DNA of 64,000 nt from an uncultured Acidimicrobiaceae bacterium (GCA_947258985.1 CAMYKI010000003.1:24222-88221), one strand, 5' to 3'. Positions 12,901 through 34,939 are shown, counted from the first letter of the stretch. Notes: generated by a model not told the origin, from the letters alone. Numbers and translations: made by a program.

Positions 12901-13536
12901 ATGTTCAACACCTTCGAGCCGCTGATCGCCATCGACGACAAGGCGAAGGCGACCATCCTCGATGTACTCAGACAGGAGCCGGATGGCGACGCTCTGGGGC
13001 TCGTCGTGAGCATCGCCGGGATCGACGGCACCGCCTTCAAGTACAGCCTGGCCATGGTTCGGCTCGAGGATGCCGCTCCCAGCGACCACCTCGTGCCCGC
13101 CGGTGATCTGACAATCGTTGTCCCGGATGCGGATCTGGAGAATCTGCGAGGGGCCACGATCAAGATGTCGGCGAACCTCCTGCAACCGGGACTTGTGCTC
13201 GACAACCCGAATACCCCCAGTCCGCGCATTCTGGGTGAGGGTGATCCGACGCAGCTGTCCGGCTCGATTGAGGAACGGGCAATCCAGGTCGTAGACACAA
13301 TGATCAACCCCGCAATAGCAGCCCACGGAGGTCGGGCCGAGATTGCCGGTGTCGAGGATGGGACTGCATACGTTCGTCTGGGCGGGGGGTGCCAGGGTTG
13401 CGGGATGGCGTCGGTGACGCTGTCTCAGGGCATAGAGGCAACCCTCATCGAGATGGTGCCCGAACTCAGCAAGGTCATCGATGTAACCGACCACTCTGGC
13501 GGCGACAACCCCTACTACGAGGCTGCGAAGAAGTAG
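12901..13536 (+). CDS. Fe-S cluster biogenesis protein, NfuA-like (degenerate A-type carrier N-domain plus Nfu C-domain)
   Basis: C-terminal Nfu motif GGGCQGCGMASVTL. The N-terminal about 95 aa look like an IscA/HesB fold lacking cysteines. ATG at 12901. Confidence 0.65.
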   Translation: MFNTFEPLIAIDDKAKATILDVLRQEPDGDALGLVVSIAGIDGTAFKYSLAMVRLEDAAPSDHLVPAGDLTIVVPDADLENLRGATIKMSANLLQPGLVLDNPNTPSPRILGEGDPTQLSGSIEERAIQVVDTMINPAIAAHGGRAEIAGVEDGTAYVRLGGGCQGCGMASVTLSQGIEATLIEMVPELSKVIDVTDHSGGDNPYYEAAKK

Positions 13537-13604
13537 TTTCGGCGGCGAGCCGTGTCGGGATTCCCGGTGAACCGTCGTAGTCGGTTCCCCTACACTCGCC
13601 AGCC

Positions 13605-16600
13605 ATGAGCGTGACCTGTTCTTCGTGCGGCACCCCTGGTCTGGATGGGGCCCGGTTCTGCGCGACCTGCGGTGAGTCGCTGTCTGTTCGGTGTCCGCAG
13701 TGTGCGGGGGAGGTCCCTGAAGGCTCACGTTTTTGTCCGACGTGCGGTAGCCAACTCGATGCCGACCGGGAGCAATCAGACGCCTCCCGTGAGGAGCGCA
13801 AGGTTGTCTCGGTGTTGTTTGCCGACCTGGTGGGTTTCACCGCTCACGCCGCTCAGGCCGACCCGGAAGATGTAAGGGTCCGGCTCACGGTGTATCACCG
13901 CAAGATCCGGGAGGATGTGGAGCGTTTCGGGGGCAGGGTCGAGAAGTTGATGGGCGATGGAGCGTTTGCCGTATTTGGTGCTCCGATCGCTCACGAGGAC
14001 GACCCGGAGCGCGCGGTTCGAGCTGCGCTGCGCGTCCAGCGTTCAGTGGAGGATCTCAACGAGGGTGATGCCGAGCTTGCTCTTTCGGTGCGGATCGCAG
14101 TCACCACCGGCGAGGCAATCGTGCAGTTGCAGGACGACGATCCCGATCGCGAAGGGATAGTCGGTGACGTCGTCAACACGGCCTCGCGGCTCGAGGCGGT
14201 TGCCCCTCCGGGGGGAGTCGTCGTCGACGAACGCACCTATCTCGCCACGCGGGATGCCGTCATCTACACCGACCTCGACCCGGTCCGGGTCAAAGGCAAG
14301 GAAGTTCCGCTGGCGATCTGGCAGCCGCAGGAGGCGCGTAGCCGGTACGGAGTTGCGGTGGAGAGACGTCACGTCGCGCCGTTTGTCGGAAGGGACGCGG
14401 AGTTGGGCGTGCTCGTGGACGCCTTCGAGCGCGTAGTGGCCGACAGCACCGTCCAGTTGGTGACGATCGTCGGCGAGCCCGGCGCAGGAAAGAGCCGTCT
14501 CCTTCACGAATTCTTCGATTCCGTCGACGCTCGGCCCGATCTCGTCTGGTGGCGACAGGGCAGATGCCCGGCCTACGGCGAAGGGATCGCCTTCTGGGCG
14601 TTGAGCGAGATTGTGAAATCGCACGCCGGCATTCTCGAGTCTGACACCGCCGACATCGCTGAGAGAAAGCTGCACACTGCACTTCGGTCCCTCCCGATCG
14701 ACCCTGCAAATGCCGACTGGGTAGAGTCTCGGCTCGCTCGGCTTGCCGGCGTCGGCACAAATGAGGGAGAGGTAGATCAGGCAGATCTGTTCTCTGCCTG
14801 GTTGCGGTTCTTCGAGGCCATGGCGGACCGGAATCCGCTCGTCTTGGTGGTCGAGGACCTGCATTGGGCCGACGGGGCCATGCTGGACTTCATTGAACAC
14901 CTCACGGATTGGGCGGTTTCTTCACCGATACTGGTTGTCACGACGACGCGCCCTGAGTTGTTGGCCGGGCGTGACTCCTGGGGCGGGGGACGAAGGAATT
15001 CCAATACGATCGGACTCGCTCCACTCGACGACGCCGCCGCAGCCGGGTTGCTTTCAGCGCTTCTCGACAGCACCGTGCTCGACGCCGAGGTGCTGGACGC
15101 CATTTTGGGCCGAGCCGGCGGTAACCCGCTGTACGTCACCGAGTTTGTCCGGCTCGCCGGGGACATGGACGCTGTAGCCGACGCCTCCAGGATTGCCGCG
15201 ATGCCTTTGCCCGGTTCGGTACAAGCCCTCGTCGCCGGGAGGCTCGATCAGCTCGAAGCCGACGAGAAGGCGGTTCTGCAGGCAGCATCCGTGGTCGGAA
15301 GGGTGTTTTGGGCGGGGGCGTTGAAGTCGCTGCGACCCACGTTGACGACGGACGACGTGTTGCGCGGACTGATCCGCCGTGAGCTGATCCGGCCGGTACG
15401 GGACACGTCAATGCAGGGCCAGCAGGAATACGTGTTCACCCACAGCGTCATCCGCGATGTTGCGTACGGCCAGATTCCACGTGACGAGCGGGCACATCTA
15501 CATGAATCGGTAGCGGGATGGATCGAGGCGGTCAGCGGTACCCAGGGTTCAGATGCCGGCGAATTGCTCGCCTATCACCTTGGTGAAGCGCTGTCGTTGT
15601 CGAGTTCCCCTGCCGAGGACGTGCGGCTGCGCGCCTACCGGGCCCACATGCAGGCCGGGGACCGCGCTCGTGGGCTGAATCCGACGCTCGGTGCCGATTA
15701 CTACCGTAGGGCGGTCGAATACGCCGCTGCCGGACCGGACCGAGCGCATGCGCTGCTCGAATATGGTGACACGATTCGCCTTACCGAGCCGGATCGGGTC
15801 CGGGCGCTGCTCGATGAGGCGCTCACCCTCTTCCGGGAGGCTGGTGACGCCGAGGGCGAAGCACTGACGTTCAGCTTCCTCGCGGGCCTGTTGTGGTGGC
15901 GGGGGGACACTGCGGAGGCGTATGCCCACAGCAAGAGAGCCGTGGAAATCGTCGAAGATCTCCCGGCTTCCACCGCCAAAGCGCGGGTTCTGGTGACCCG
16001 GGCCAGCGGCCTATACCTCCGCGGTGATGCCGCGGCGGCGCTGGAGGTCTCTGCGATCGCCGCCGACGTTGTCGCCGAGGCCGGCTCGGCGGCGGATCAA
16101 GTCCAATTCCTGTACACCCGCGGTGGCGCGCTTGTGGAGCTGGGTGACGAGACGGGCCTCGATGACCTACAGGCCGCGGCGGATATGGCGTTGGATCGGA
16201 ATATGACCCAGCCGGCCGTCACCGCGCTCAACAATCTCGCCACGGTCGCGGCGACTGCCAGGAGCACCGACGAGGCGCTGGCAGCCATCGACAAGGGTAT
16301 CGCCCTCTGCGAGGAACGAGGCGCGGTAGCGGGCACCATTTGGGCGAGTTTCACCAAGTGCGAGATCCTCGTCCCGGCCGGTAGATGGGATGAGGTACTC
16401 GAACTCGCCGACTACGTAGCCGAGCGCGACGCCGCATTGGGCGGCAGCCAGGCCGCAACAGGCGCAGCCTCACTCAAGGCGATCGTGCTGTTCTACCGGG
16501 GCCAACGGGCGGAAGCCCGCCGTCTCCACGCCACCGTGCTCAAATCAGCTCGCGAGATCGGGGATCAACAGGTGCTGTCCCCGGTGCTGGCATTCGAGGC

Positions 16601-17084
16601 GCTCATGGCCGCCGACAGCGGTGAATGCTCCGCGGCAATCGACCTCTGCGAGCAATACCACACAAGCACGGTCGACAACCCGGGCATGCGGTCGTACAAC
16701 CTGGCAGCGGCAACTGAAGCTCTCTGGGCATGTGACGAAAAGAATTTGCTGCTGAGGCTCGCGCAGTCGACCCGCGCCGTCGGTGCGCTCGGCGAGGTTC
16801 AAGTGGCTCGTGCTCGGGGGCATGCGGCCGCGGTAAATGGCGACTGTCGGGCCGCCGCCGACCACTTCGAACAGGCGATCGAGCGGGCCGAAGAAGCCGG
16901 TCGGTACCTCGACGGTACGCTGGCCCGTCTGGAGCGGGCGCGAGCTCTTGATGCCGCGGCCACCAGGTCTGAGATACCCCGCCTCATCGGTGAGGCTCGC
17001 GAGAGAGCCGAGCGGATGGGGGCAGCAAAGCTACTTGACCGGCTCGACGGCTTTAAAGCTACCGGCACGAGTTCCGGAGGATGA
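13605..17084 (+). CDS. multidomain signalling protein: double zinc-ribbon, class III adenylate cyclase domain, AAA/STAND NTPase and TPR-like C-terminus
   Basis: N-terminal CxxC...CxxC twice. Cyclase homology domain with metal-binding Asp (FADLVGFT, KLMGDG), adenine-specifying Lys (VEKLMGDG) and Asp (GIVGDVVNTASRLE), and transition-state Asn/Arg. Walker A GEPGAGKS. Long helical repeat-like C-terminal half. Confidence 0.8.
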   Translation: MSVTCSSCGTPGLDGARFCATCGESLSVRCPQCAGEVPEGSRFCPTCGSQLDADREQSDASREERKVVSVLFADLVGFTAHAAQADPEDVRVRLTVYHRKIREDVERFGGRVEKLMGDGAFAVFGAPIAHEDDPERAVRAALRVQRSVEDLNEGDAELALSVRIAVTTGEAIVQLQDDDPDREGIVGDVVNTASRLEAVAPPGGVVVDERTYLATRDAVIYTDLDPVRVKGKEVPLAIWQPQEARSRYGVAVERRHVAPFVGRDAELGVLVDAFERVVADSTVQLVTIVGEPGAGKSRLLHEFFDSVDARPDLVWWRQGRCPAYGEGIAFWALSEIVKSHAGILESDTADIAERKLHTALRSLPIDPANADWVESRLARLAGVGTNEGEVDQADLFSAWLRFFEAMADRNPLVLVVEDLHWADGAMLDFIEHLTDWAVSSPILVVTTTRPELLAGRDSWGGGRRNSNTIGLAPLDDAAAAGLLSALLDSTVLDAEVLDAILGRAGGNPLYVTEFVRLAGDMDAVADASRIAAMPLPGSVQALVAGRLDQLEADEKAVLQAASVVGRVFWAGALKSLRPTLTTDDVLRGLIRRELIRPVRDTSMQGQQEYVFTHSVIRDVAYGQIPRDERAHLHESVAGWIEAVSGTQGSDAGELLAYHLGEALSLSSSPAEDVRLRAYRAHMQAGDRARGLNPTLGADYYRRAVEYAAAGPDRAHALLEYGDTIRLTEPDRVRALLDEALTLFREAGDAEGEALTFSFLAGLLWWRGDTAEAYAHSKRAVEIVEDLPASTAKARVLVTRASGLYLRGDAAAALEVSAIAADVVAEAGSAADQVQFLYTRGGALVELGDETGLDDLQAAADMALDRNMTQPAVTALNNLATVAATARSTDEALAAIDKGIALCEERGAVAGTIWASFTKCEILVPAGRWDEVLELADYVAERDAALGGSQAATGAASLKAIVLFYRGQRAEARRLHATVLKSAREIGDQQVLSPVLAFEALMAADSGECSAAIDLCEQYHTSTVDNPGMRSYNLAAATEALWACDEKNLLLRLAQSTRAVGALGEVQVARARGHAAAVNGDCRAAADHFEQAIERAEEAGRYLDGTLARLERARALDAAATRSEIPRLIGEARERAERMGAAKLLDRLDGFKATGTSSGG

Positions 17085-17156
17085 CGTCACCAATCTCATC
17101 GCCACGAGCCGCTATCAGAAGCTAGGGTCGAGGCTGAATCCGGAGGAGGAGCACCC

Positions 17157-17576
17157 ATGGACAAGGTCGAATTTCTGAGCAAGACACCGCTCTTTGAGAG
17201 TTGCTCAGCAAAGAGCGTCAAGTCCATTGCCGAGCAGACCAGGGTCAGGAAGTTCAGCGCCGGAGACGAGATCATTGTCGAGGGCAGTCAGAAGACCATG
17301 GGTTTCTACATGATTCTGGACGGTGAAGCGAGGGTGAGTCGGGCGGACCATCACCTCGGTGACTATGGGCCCGGCGACTACTTCGGCGAAATAGCTCTTC
17401 TGCTAGATGACACACCGAGAACCGCAACGGTCACGGCCGTCACGGATCTGAGCGTGCTCGTGTTGACCCGGTGGGATTTCAAGGCACTGATCAAGACCAA
17501 CCCGGAAATCGCGGTCGAGGTGATGGGTGTGCTTGCGCAGCGTCTCGCCGCCACAGATCGAGTTCTCGGCGAATAG
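17157..17576 (+). CDS. stand-alone cyclic-nucleotide-binding (CAP-effector) domain protein, no DNA-binding domain
   Basis: 139 aa. Phosphate-binding cassette FGEIALLLDDTPRTATVTA. GGAGGAG Shine-Dalgarno precedes the ATG. Starts 73 bp after the cyclase gene and ends at the terminator below. Confidence 0.75.
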   Translation: MDKVEFLSKTPLFESCSAKSVKSIAEQTRVRKFSAGDEIIVEGSQKTMGFYMILDGEARVSRADHHLGDYGPGDYFGEIALLLDDTPRTATVTAVTDLSVLVLTRWDFKALIKTNPEIAVEVMGVLAQRLAATDRVLGE

Positions 17577-17599
17577 CCTTTTCGCCTGTCAGACAAGAG

Positions 17600-17625
17600 A
17601 AAACCCCGCCCGGAGGCGGGGTTTT
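17600..17625. terminator. bidirectional rho-independent terminator
   Basis: AAAACCCCGCC-cggag-GGCGGGGTTTT: a 7-bp GC stem flanked by an A-run and a T-run, lying between convergent genes. Confidence 0.6.
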
Positions 17626-17648
17626 CAGTTGGTTGATTCAGGCCGTTA

Positions 17649-17942
17649 CTAGACGGCTACGCGGTCCTTCAGGCCCTTGGCGGGCTTGAACTTCGCATGC
17701 TTCTTCGCTGCGATCTGAATCGTTTCGCCGGTGGCAGGATTGCGACCCTGACGAGCCTTGCTCCGGCTCGTGTAGAACTTGCCAAAACCGCTGATGGCGA
17801 CATCACGGTCGGCGTCGAGCTCGACGGCAATGATGCCGTCGCCCGAATCAGAGCTGAAAATGATGTCGATGACCTCTGCAGCCTTTGCCTGGCTCAGGTC
17901 TGCCTTCTTGGCGAGCTTCTTCGCCATCTCTGTCTTGTTCAT
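17649..17942 (-). CDS. hup: DNA-binding protein HU
   Basis: MNKTEMAKKLAKKADLSQAKAAEVIDIIF...GFGKF...RNPATGETI is a canonical HU/IHF fold sequence. ATG at 17942. Confidence 0.85.
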   Translation of the reverse strand: MNKTEMAKKLAKKADLSQAKAAEVIDIIFSSDSGDGIIAVELDADRDVAISGFGKFYTSRSKARQGRNPATGETIQIAAKKHAKFKPAKGLKDRVAV

Positions 17943-18072
17943 AGTGAACTCCCTATCTTGACGAACCTCGGGATGTGTTTCCCCGCTTTGCAAGCGACCA
18001 AGCTACACCCAAAACCCGCATAAACAGTGGATTTTTTGCGAGAGCGGTGCCGCGGAGCGGATGACCGATCGG

Positions 18073-20028
<1,956 letters not shown>

Positions 20029-33871: not shown

Positions 33872-34720
33872 TTAGCCGTTGGGCGTGCCCCAGAACTTGA
33901 TCTCAGCTAGCGCCAACTCTTCGAACGCCGGTTGATCACCGATCGCCGATGACGGGAAGTTGCTCAGCACCTCGATGGTGAGCGTCGTTGTGTCGATGCT
34001 GGCGATGTCAATCCGCTGCGGACCTCCGGCGAGATCCTTCAACGTGTTGCGATTCTCCACACCGGGCAGATCGTCGACGGTGATCTTGTAGCCCTGAATC
34101 CGATAGTTCCGCAGGAAGCGATCTTGCTCGGCGATGTTGTAGACCTCGATGTAGCGGATGCTCACCGGTTGGGCGAAACGGAATTCCAGCACAAGTGGCG
34201 ACGTCGCCTGGTTCACCTGCCACTCGGAGTCGAGGTCATCGTCGATGAGGTTGGCTGTACCAAAACCGTCCGACAGTTGTGGCCCGCTGACCTGGGTCGG
34301 GGTGATCTGGGTGGTGTCGGCGATCGTTGTCGTGGTTGTTTCGACGGTCGTTGTGGTCTCTGCGGCTTCGTCGCCGCCACGGAAGACGTTCACGAGAAGG
34401 GCGACGAGAGCCACGATGAGCACGGCCGCGGCGAGGACGCTCAGAGCCCTTCCTCCCGGCGTTGAACGCACCATTGGCGCCGGTGCTACGGGCAGCGGTT
34501 CCTTCGTGAGGCGGGCCCCGCACTGTTCGCAATGCCGGTTGTAGGAGGGGTTGTACGCACCGCACGAGGGACAGGGAACCTGTTCGACAGGAGCTGCTGG
34601 AGGTTCCTCCGCTTCCGCCTCGGGGGCGGGTGGGGGCGGCTCGGTTCCCGGTGGCGGCGGTCCGTCCTCGAGTTCGAACGGCTCGAACAGATCGTCAAAT
34701 GGGTCCTTGTCTTTCGCCAC
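33872..34720 (-). CDS. membrane protein with N-terminal zinc-ribbon, single TM and C-terminal discoidin (F5/8 type C)-like domain
   Basis: CPSCGAYNPSYNRHCEQCG zinc ribbon, a Pro-rich acidic N-terminus, a TM helix (LSVLAAAVLIVALVALLV), a Thr-rich linker, and a C-terminal roughly 150-aa galactose-binding-like domain. GTG at 34720 with GGAGAC Shine-Dalgarno. The ORF track extends further to an unlikely upstream ATG. Confidence 0.55.
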   Translation of the reverse strand: MAKDKDPFDDLFEPFELEDGPPPPGTEPPPPAPEAEAEEPPAAPVEQVPCPSCGAYNPSYNRHCEQCGARLTKEPLPVAPAPMVRSTPGGRALSVLAAAVLIVALVALLVNVFRGGDEAAETTTTVETTTTTIADTTQITPTQVSGPQLSDGFGTANLIDDDLDSEWQVNQATSPLVLEFRFAQPVSIRYIEVYNIAEQDRFLRNYRIQGYKITVDDLPGVENRNTLKDLAGGPQRIDIASIDTTTLTIEVLSNFPSSAIGDQPAFEELALAEIKFWGTPNG

Positions 34721-34939
34721 GTCAGGTCTCCGTCGTTCAGTCCGCCCAAGGGCTATTGTGCCACGGATGGTTGTGATTAGCGCGTTACGTGAGACTGAAG
34801 CCTGGTCGGCGGCAAGTGTGGTGCTCGGATTGCTGCTGCTTGCGCTCCTCATAGGGTTCATCGTGGTGCGAGTGCGTCGCTTCCTCCGGGACCCCTGAGC
34901 CCTTCAGAATCTGTCGTACCCGGGCCATAGGCTGCCGGC

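Follow-up and report, generated by a model that had tools for sequence, protein, structure and literature searches.

Bacterial receptors for cyclic AMP (cAMP) usually consist of a cyclic-nucleotide-binding (CNB) domain fused to an output module such as a helix-turn-helix (HTH), an acetyltransferase, a channel or a TIR domain. The class III cyclases that make such messengers are active only as dimers, with their active sites at the interface, and STAND proteins are kept inactive by a sensor arm until a ligand binds and the nucleotide is exchanged, whereupon they oligomerise. Cyclase and STAND modules are combined in Rv0386, Rv1358 and Rv2488c of M. tuberculosis, where a class IIIc cyclase is followed by a STAND module of the LAL/MalT type, tetratricopeptide repeats (TPR) and a LuxR HTH; the ATPase function of these Rv0386-type proteins is unstudied (bioRxiv 10.1101/2024.03.06.583649). 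Here we describe a two-gene locus in a 64,000-nt stretch of DNA from an uncultured Acidimicrobiaceae bacterium (GCA_947258985.1 CAMYKI010000003.1:24222-88221; the window, with coordinates counted from its first letter). The first gene encodes an 1159-aa cyclase-STAND-TPR protein, for which the Rv0386 group is the closest described architecture apart from the HTH, and the second a 139-aa protein, the binder, with a single CNB domain. We read the two as a chromosomal housekeeping cAMP signalling pair of an Acidimicrobiia-type actinobacterium, in which the binder acts in trans on cAMP turnover, and hold this reading at a probability of about one half.

A cyclase-STAND protein and a putative receptor with no output domain

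A Pfam search of the 1159-aa protein returned, all above gathering score, DZR, Guanylate_cyc, AAA_16 and TPR_12 in that order. This is the architecture of zinc ribbon, cyclase, STAND NTPase and helical repeats proposed in an earlier, sequence-only reading of this DNA, which had also placed both open reading frames (ORFs) exactly where we recovered them (Table 1). An AlphaFold2 model built from 48 homologues (mean pLDDT 84, most TPR hairpins above 90) comprises an alpha/beta NTPase core, a helical region and then an unbroken superhelix of helical hairpins to residue 1156, and when the model was compared in full by Foldseek, 6MFV, a STAND-TPR protein of Pyrococcus, ranked first (775 columns, E 1.9e-12). 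In addition to the Walker A sequence noticed before (GEPGAGKS, 290-297) there is a Walker B sequence (LVVED, 414-418), and the GxxGxGK[ST] and ED motifs are invariant across 121 homologues. With a P-loop bearing Walker A and B, a helical/winged-helix module and C-terminal repeats, this part of the protein is predicted from profile and model to be a STAND NTPase of the MalT/AAA_16 type, and the superhelix is presumably its sensor. Pfam gave no GerE/LuxR match that would indicate a C-terminal LuxR-type HTH; the TPR-like repeat continues to residue 1156.

Proteins of the same architecture fill more than 7,900 database clusters, many of them labelled 'AAA family ATPase' or 'class 3 adenylate cyclase/TPR repeat protein'; by their source names these clusters point to Acidimicrobiia. 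No NCBIfam model reached its curated threshold on the large protein, the best partial match being to the cyclase-ATPase part of 'TOMM system kinase/cyclase fusion protein'. The cyclase is a member of the well-populated, partly characterised Rv0386-like cyclase-STAND-TPR group, with an extra zinc ribbon and without the HTH.

The cyclase domain matched Cya2 at 1e-22 in a phmmer search of the PDB, and its AlphaFold2 model superposes on Cya2, CyaB, Rv1900c and Ma1120 with a TMt of 0.86-0.92 (Foldseek). To place individual residues we aligned the domain to PDB structures of Cya2, CyaB and 5OYH and scored column conservation over the 121 homologues. The metal ligands are D74 (conserved in 118 of 121) and D118 (119 of 121), and the transition-state residues are N191 (all 121) and R195 (120 of 121); all four align with their counterparts in solved cyclases, as the sequence-only reading had supposed. 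A profile score above threshold, a cyclase fold, the metal Asp pair and the transition-state Asn/Arg together place the domain among the class III nucleotidyl cyclases.

The residues that specify the substrate gave a different result from the one predicted. The first position is K114, a Lys in 115 of the 121 homologues and a Glu in 4. In the alignments the guanylate cyclase Cya2 (2W01) has Glu here, and its E488K variant (6FHT), an adenylate cyclase, has Lys. The second position is Gly184, where Cya2 has Gly, P. aeruginosa CyaB has Thr and 5OYH, a rhodopsin cyclase of converted specificity, has an engineered Asp; among the homologues this position holds Gly (82), Arg (13), Thr (12), Ser (10) or Ala (4), and never Asp. 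By all three PDB alignments the pair is Lys114/Gly184, not the Lys plus Asp (or Thr) of adenylate-specific class III cyclases. A Lys/Asp pair had been claimed earlier, and the lack of one in an alignment had been named as the outcome that would count against that claim; formally, this is the outcome obtained. We also considered the nearly invariant E183 as an Asp-like specificity residue, and rejected it since each of the three alignments puts it one position ahead of the site in question.

In class III cyclases the choice of adenine depends mainly on Lys. For this reason, and because Cya2 E488K, which combines Lys with the native Gly, shows adenylate cyclase activity (PMC5995499), ATP is probably the substrate of this enzyme, with relaxed specificity possible. 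The wording 'adenine-specific' of the earlier reading has to be weakened to a probable use of ATP.

In the 139-aa protein, cNMP_binding (residues 31-115) is the sole Pfam domain (PF00027, 2.8e-19, 69.3 bits against a cutoff of 27.5). Its phosphate-binding cassette, YFGEIALLLDDTPRTATV (aa 76-92, nt 17382-17432), is intact: in an alignment of 52 family members G77, E78, R88 and A90 are invariant and T89 is conserved, which bears out the earlier claim down to the conserved Arg and Glu. Three more residues do not vary: W106 and, in the C-helix, R129 and L130. The AlphaFold2 model (pLDDT 87) shows an eight-stranded barrel, N-terminal helices and a 23-residue C-helix (aa 116-138). Its best Foldseek matches, with TM 0.82-0.85, are the N-domains of CRP from M. 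tuberculosis (TM 0.85) and of GlxR from C. glutamicum, each together with its C-helix, with further matches to the CNB domains of PKA, PKG, MloK1 and PycTIR; by sequence profile it is closest to CNB domains of the PKG/PKA type. The barrel, the G-E...R-[ST]-A cassette and the helices that define a cyclic-nucleotide-binding domain are all present. The R-T-A motif occurs in both cAMP- and cGMP-selective CNB domains, so a preference for either cannot be read from it.

The chain ends at residue 139, right after the C-helix. Pfam finds no HTH in it, and the NCBIfam CRP model scores 45.5 bits against a cutoff of 266, so that the C-terminal HTH of a CRP/FNR transcription factor is absent and the earlier statement that this is no CRP-type regulator holds. 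The family comprises 644 clusters, almost all of 138-139 aa, and because of this fixed length and the directly following terminator we reject a truncated CRP pseudogene. Judged by its residues and its model, the 139-aa protein looks like a fully competent cyclic-nucleotide receptor that ends where other receptors start their output domain, and such a conserved sensor-only family differs from the usual bacterial cAMP receptor.

The nearest multidomain relatives of the binder family are proteins of at least 417 aa with PPDK_N (PEP-utilising, ATP-grasp-like) and a C-terminal CNB domain (L041, L046-L049, L073, L092; L numbers denote the loci compared), which occur in Verrucomicrobiota, NC10, Binatia and others. 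In L034 (11014-13169), L038, L065 and L090 a second CNB-only gene comes directly after the gene for an MFS transporter of 550-580 aa that ends in a CNB domain, these genes lying a few kb from the first CNB-only gene.

Gene linkage and layout of the locus

The order cyclase, CNB, HU (-) and beta-eliminating lyase (-) is kept in L001, L002, L013, L175 and L176, inside a long syntenic block that in the closest relatives spans ftsH to lysS. Within it the pair has stayed together in L001 despite the absence of the upstream ATP-grasp and NifU genes, and in L175 despite a polysaccharide-lyase gene inserted downstream. A second lineage (L010-12, L014, L177), whose CNB protein is 66-69% identical to the binder, has the inverted order CNB then cyclase in an unrelated neighbourhood beside EamA and ilvD. 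There, L010-12 carry Rdx, EamA, CNB and a 1092-aa cyclase-AAA_16-TPR gene, L014 carries CNB followed by a 1099-aa cyclase-STAND and a 1162-aa DZR-cyclase-STAND gene, and L177 carries CNB, a 150-aa unknown ORF and a DZR-cyclase-STAND gene. In a third arrangement, found in Thermoleophilia-type metagenome-assembled genomes (MAGs; L052, L080, L086), the CNB-only gene lies tail-to-tail with a DZR-cyclase-STAND-TPR gene across a gap of 1-16 bp. Since the pair recurs in three arrangements and in unrelated neighbourhoods, a functional link between the two genes, beyond merely inherited gene order, is supported by these comparisons; the co-occurrence proposed as a check on the sequence-only reading is therefore found beyond synteny.

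The 150-aa ORF is a conserved feature of this 'CNB-first' lineage (L010:11765-12217, L014:13845-14306, L177:6677-7129, L178:1109-1561), has no Pfam match and is absent from the window.

The strength of the association was estimated by running the CNB profile over a single genome of each species; this yielded 80 loci, which were annotated with purpose-built hidden Markov models (HMMs). A cyclase gene lay within 300 bp of the CNB gene in 6 of the 80, and the comparison flank (more than 1.5 kb away, 894 kb in all) held one cyclase gene and no close homologue of the metallo-beta-lactamase (MBL)-fold proteins described below. For adjacency of cyclase and CNB this gives an odds ratio of ~35 (p = 7e-5) in a rough gene-level Fisher test.

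The family of the binder also lies beside a second kind of gene. In its sister clade (45-54% identity) a 256-272-aa MBL-fold gene follows directly downstream, usually after 7-48 nt (350 nt in L015), and no cyclase is nearby (L004-9, L015-19, L022, L023, L025; for example L007:8001-9236). These MBL proteins carry PF12706 and, in precomputed annotation, PF23023 (Anti-Pycsar Apyc1), and our direct Pfam scan returned Lactamase_B_2 and Lactamase_B only. In the 80-locus scan a close Apyc1-like homologue stood within 300 bp of the CNB gene in 7 loci, plus L015 at 350 bp, and a more distant MBL protein did so in 16. In Gaiellaceae/Thermoleophilia-type loci (16) a 250-aa YhfI-like MBL gene is divergent from a 136-aa CNB-only gene (Table 1), and its product matches the YhfI-type structures of B. 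subtilis/B. anthracis (6KNS 6e-22, 1ZKP 2e-21) and Apyc1 (7U2R, 3e-5). Both Apyc1 and YhfI belong to the class II phosphodiesterases of cyclic mononucleotides, which have the MBL fold, and the preferred substrates of YhfI are cAMP/cGMP (PMC9117128).

Both associations come together in an Actinomycetota MAG (L020:884-3058), where CNB, a 303-aa class III cyclase fused to a 2Fe-2S ferredoxin and an Apyc1-like MBL gene stand in a tight row, separated by a 4-nt gap and then a 4-nt overlap. Read from its genes, this locus would bring receptor, synthase and probable phosphodiesterase into one operon, and it is the strongest hint that the binder belongs to machinery that sets the level of cyclic nucleoside monophosphates (cNMPs). 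The window itself contains no MBL phosphodiesterase, second CNB or CRP, even at E up to 10.

Two further neighbourhoods were noted in these comparisons. A beta-eliminating lyase (tryptophanase-like, PF01212) lies ~0.5-2 kb from the CNB-only gene both in the clade of the window (17649-19542, -) and in L004-6 (L004:4644-6020), and this shared neighbour may be a remnant of older synteny. In L156 (10499-14241) a cyclase-STAND gene has a further cNMP cluster downstream of it, with genes for an MBL-fold hydrolase, for a protein of 336 aa that ends in a CNB domain and for a class III cyclase fused to a response regulator.

Several observations weigh against reading the two genes as a cAMP signalling pair. 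The Gly at the second specificity position makes the substrate preference less certain. The position of the transition-state Asn is Ala in two CNB-partnered cyclases (L010, L014a) and His in a third (L080), so the binder may not always require a catalytic partner. Seen from the cyclase side, none of 79 metagenomic homologues (39-62% identity, ~60 with enough flank) has a CNB-only neighbour, nor does a 47%-identical paralogue on a 722-kb contig; the 62%-identical cyclase of L146 has no CNB partner either, on a frameshifted contig where the following ORF is not a CNB. The pairing therefore holds for a subset of cyclases only: the cyclases form a large family, mostly without partners, and the binders a small one that often stands beside cNMP enzymes. 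No CNB domain fused to a cyclase-STAND or MBL protein was found among the top 120 cyclase and top 120 MBL homologues, the longer CNB relatives in the genome scan being the PPDK_N and MFS fusions. Finally, cyclases fused to NACHT or AP-ATPase STAND modules form a predicted immune clade in a recent preprint (10.64898/2026.08.12.744502).

The cyclase-STAND proteins without the Asn retain both metal-binding Asp, the specificity Lys and the transition-state Arg (L010:8485-11763, L014:10452-13751, L080:10409-13687), and may be catalytically weak or regulatory paralogues.

At its most sceptical, this evidence could mean that the two genes have no functional relation and are adjacent only through the inherited order of a core region. 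Such an account is very hard to credit, since the pair recurs inverted and convergent in unrelated neighbourhoods and lineages and survives gain and loss of flanking genes, however well it fits the synteny of the whole region in the closest relatives and the lack of a partner for most cyclase paralogues, L146 included. It also leaves aside that the binder family associates with phosphodiesterase-like genes, that is, with a different enzyme of the same pathway.

In the window the spacer between the two genes measures 72 nt, not the 73 bp first given. The CNB gene has the strong Shine-Dalgarno sequence of its own that had been reported for it, and a hairpin bordered by A and T runs separates it from the convergent HU gene, in keeping with the terminator proposed there (Table 1). 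A terminator scan found none between the cyclase and CNB genes, so that read-through into the CNB gene is also possible. When the spacers of the window, L001, L002 and L013 were aligned, the motif GCTAG(G/T)GTCGA occupied the same position in all 4 and the remaining spacer was unconserved, the spacer of L013 being 80 nt longer. TANNNT-like hexamers occur at a similar distance in other CNB-family members, and such hexamers are common by chance; a sigma-70 consensus promoter scan of 13300-17800 gave no match, at this motif or elsewhere. The conserved -10-like motif is thus a hint that the CNB gene may have its own promoter, which would allow more of the binder than of the 1159-aa enzyme to be produced. 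No Shine-Dalgarno sequence could be recognised before the cyclase gene (13580-13607), and a TANNNT-like hexamer, TACACT (13591-13596), ends 8 nt before its ATG; for both reasons its mRNA may be leaderless or nearly so.

Table 1. Positions of the features of the locus in the window; the last row gives comparison loci by handle.
Feature	Position	Strand	Details
Cyclase gene	13605-17084	+	1159 aa, ATG; ORF call and translation
Double zinc ribbon	13617-13748	+	aa 5-48; CxxC pairs C5/C8, C19/C22, C30/C33, C44/C47; PF12773 2.8e-10
Class III cyclase domain	13794-14303	+	aa 64-233; PF00211 64.4 bits, cutoff 21.9
STAND module	14379-15404	+	AAA_16 aa 259-445 plus helical/winged-helix region to ~aa 600; PF13191 3.9e-23
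TPR-like helical-repeat superhelix	15426-17072	+	aa 608-1156; TPR_12 and TPR_10 matches; helical hairpins in AlphaFold2 model
Conserved motif GCTAG(G/T)GTCGA with -10-like TANNNT	17121-17131	+	~30 nt upstream of CNB start; ortholog spacer alignment
Shine-Dalgarno sequence of CNB gene, GGAGGAGGAG	17142-17151	+	5 nt before ATG; read from sequence
CNB gene	17157-17576	+	139 aa, ATG; single cyclic-nucleotide-binding domain; ORF call and translation
GC-rich hairpin	17599-17626		12-bp stem, 8 G-C pairs, 4-nt loop; terminator scan and sequence
HU gene	17649-17993	-	convergent with CNB gene
Loci with divergent YhfI-like MBL and CNB genes			L029-L033, L037, L042, L044, L050, L051, L053, L057, L070, L072, L077, L083, L088

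Proposed role in cAMP turnover

These data allow us to propose how the pair might work. The components are standard, and the mechanism built from them is a proposal by analogy. Because class III cyclases are active only as dimers, oligomerisation would be a natural on-switch for the cyclase. A ligand or partner on the TPR region would relieve the autoinhibition of the cyclase-STAND protein, ADP would be swapped for ATP, and the large protein would then oligomerise, bringing two cyclase domains together in the obligatory dimer, which would complete the active sites and allow cAMP to be made. The 139-aa protein would bind the cyclic nucleotide through its intact phosphate-binding cassette. Given that it has no output domain, and that its family lies repeatedly beside cyclases and MBL-fold phosphodiesterase-like genes, we infer that it acts in trans on cAMP turnover, where it likely helps to control the cAMP pool rather than regulating genes or killing the cell.

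The version of this reading that we tentatively favour, although it is less likely than not, has the binder as a regulatory subunit, detachable, that signals cAMP to the enzyme encoded next to it, which would mean negative feedback on the cyclase here and activation of a phosphodiesterase in the sister lineages. Stated as a mechanism, the cAMP-bound CNB-only protein would be a detachable allosteric subunit that docks onto enzymes of cNMP turnover, on the cyclase at this locus and on the MBL phosphodiesterase in sister lineages; this is possible, with the odds against it. If true, it would amount to a trans-acting, PKA-R-like principle of bacterial cAMP homeostasis, and the binder would be the first known protein regulator of a STAND-gated cyclase. 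A close rival within this frame, rather unlikely in our estimate, is that the binder fixes the amount of free cAMP by acting as a sponge like Rv1636.

The structure of the binder also suggests a role outside cAMP turnover. Its closest structural matches are N-domains of CRP and GlxR with their C-helix, two C-helix residues are invariant in its family, and its gene appears to have its own promoter and Shine-Dalgarno sequence, as one might expect of an independent effector that dimerises through the C-helix and, when cAMP-bound, binds an unlinked target, with the cyclase a mere source of signal and no feedback. A transcription factor, a channel or a CRP-family protein that takes it up as a non-DNA-binding heterodimer partner would be candidate targets, and in L004-6 a TrkA_N/RCK protein is encoded directly upstream. 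We regard this as unlikely: no candidate target is conserved across the arrangements, in which only cyclases and MBL-fold phosphodiesterase-like genes recur as neighbours, and the window yielded neither a CRP-type gene nor another CNB.

Both proteins resemble parts of known defence systems. In PADLOC they match Pycsar models at the domain level only (PycC at 8e-16 over the cyclase domain, and the CNB part of PycTIR at 1e-16, positions ~30-145 of ~300), and there is a weak Avs1b match. On this basis the locus could serve conflict or defence, an NLR-like STAND cyclase sensing an invader through its TPR region and making a cNMP alarm in the manner of Pycsar/Pucsar, with the CNB-only protein setting a threshold as a sponge or serving as adaptor for an effector whose gene lies elsewhere. 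The preprint that places STAND-fused cyclases in a predicted immune clade also reports a cGMP-based Pucsar system, so that purine cNMPs can signal defence (10.64898/2026.08.12.744502); the earlier argument that a purine-specific cyclase speaks against defence is accordingly no longer valid alone. The NTPase here, however, is of the 6MFV-like AAA_16/MalT type, and neither NACHT nor AP-ATPase, the STAND types of that preprint, was matched.

The genomic setting bears on the same question. The window is a conserved actinobacterial core region (ftsH, folP, folK, nifU, HU, panC, coaX, lysS, clpC, radA) of even G+C content, with no flanking mobile-element or defence genes and with 1:1 orthologues of the pair across relatives. 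Compared with three orthologous loci, identity is 82-87% in the cyclase domain, 67-81% in the NTPase and 73-81% in the binder, against 72-77% for FolK and 92-93% for FtsH and HU; by this measure the cyclase and CNB orthologues are as conserved as FolK, and the binder is conserved like a housekeeping protein. The TPR region diverges faster than the catalytic part (53-72% over these three loci, with 48-75% as the wider range recorded), as might be expected of a sensor of invaders, and paralogous DZR-cyclase-STAND-TPR genes often form head-to-tail tandem pairs in metagenome loci (L108, L112, L123, L128, L129, L161, L171), arrays that would suit a defence family and that indicate lineage-specific expansion. 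Pfam and the neighbourhood annotation, in turn, revealed no killing domain, be it TIR, transmembrane, nuclease or another, in the binder or its neighbours, and without a TIR or transmembrane effector fused to its CNB, in a core-genome context syntenic in relatives, the locus falls outside Pycsar/Pucsar. As the effector domain is missing, the location is core-genome and the orthologues are conserved, we consider defence highly improbable here, which agrees with the earlier view that this is not a cyclase-plus-killer pair.

The zinc ribbon is the least conserved region among the orthologues (38-49% identity). It is missing from some CNB-partnered cyclases (L175, L010), so pairing with the CNB protein does not require it. 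Elsewhere in the window, a 329-aa ORF between the clpC and radA-like genes (33872-34861, -) shows a weak match (4e-6) to the zinc-ribbon HMM of the cyclase and no Pfam match at E <= 1e-5.

We return to the reading of the locus as a housekeeping cAMP pair. The repeated placement of a conserved CNB-only family next to enzymes for synthesis and probable breakdown of the messenger suggests that its pool is itself subject to control, through feedback or buffering, and this extra layer would lie in the poorly studied Actinomycetota (Acidimicrobiia, Thermoleophilia). Should the pair prove ordinary, the gain is one of annotation: 'AAA family ATPase' is the current label of the large protein, and that of the small one, 'Crp/Fnr family transcriptional regulator', is wrong.

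Comparison with known systems

We found no description of a stand-alone CNB protein linked to a cyclase, or of its pairing with a STAND cyclase, in the searchable literature, the coverage of which was incomplete. The output-less CNB family and its recurrent pairing with cNMP-making and cNMP-degrading enzymes, as they appear from gene content, are apparently undescribed, which is not proof of novelty.

As a two-gene combination of a class III-like cyclase and a CNB protein, the locus resembles Pycsar and Pucsar, in which the cyclase is accompanied by a CNB-TIR or CNB-transmembrane effector, and the CNB domain of PycTIR (8JSK) is a good structural match to the binder. Unlike those systems it has no effector domain, its cyclase carries STAND-TPR and the purine-type Lys, and its context is the core genome. 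Relatives of Apyc1 and YhfI are the most frequent neighbours of the CNB-only family in sister lineages, and as the window holds no MBL gene, this link rests on the binder family and not on the locus itself.

For the sponge version, the functional analogues are Rv1636 and MSMEG_3811, cAMP-binding universal stress proteins for which a role as 'cAMP sponge' controlling the free cAMP pool has been proposed (PMC11107214). The binder is likewise small and without output. Unlike it, these proteins have the unrelated universal stress protein fold and are not encoded beside a cyclase or phosphodiesterase. In structure the binder is closest to the CRP/GlxR N-domain, the S. coelicolor fragment 2PQQ and the MloK1 CNB domain, with which it shares the fold, a long C-helix and a canonical cassette. 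Those structures are fragments of larger proteins, whereas the natural binder ends after the C-helix, with no HTH, channel or kinase-binding segment.

The large protein shares a nucleotide-oligomerisation module plus TPR, with conserved Walker A and B, with MalT-type STAND proteins (Pyrococcus horikoshii PH0952, PDB 6MFV; E. coli MalT). The logic expected of both is ligand-controlled, nucleotide-dependent oligomerisation. In contrast to the MalT type, the effector here is a nucleotide cyclase and not a DNA-binding domain, and identity is only 13%.

Rv0386, Rv1358 and Rv2488c remain the nearest relatives in design, with an N-terminal class III cyclase, a P-loop STAND ATPase and TPR, and Rv0386 (1085 aa) is of similar size. 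The window protein differs from them in having no LuxR HTH, and in its N-terminal double zinc ribbon, its CNB-only partner gene and its Lys/Gly specificity pair; the pair of Rv0386 is reportedly Gln/Asn. A Gln/Asn pair is attributed to Rv2488c in bioRxiv 10.1101/2024.03.06.583649. The locus described here offers a tractable two-protein system in which to approach how a STAND switch controls a dimer-dependent cyclase, a question that the Rv0386-type enzymes pose as well.

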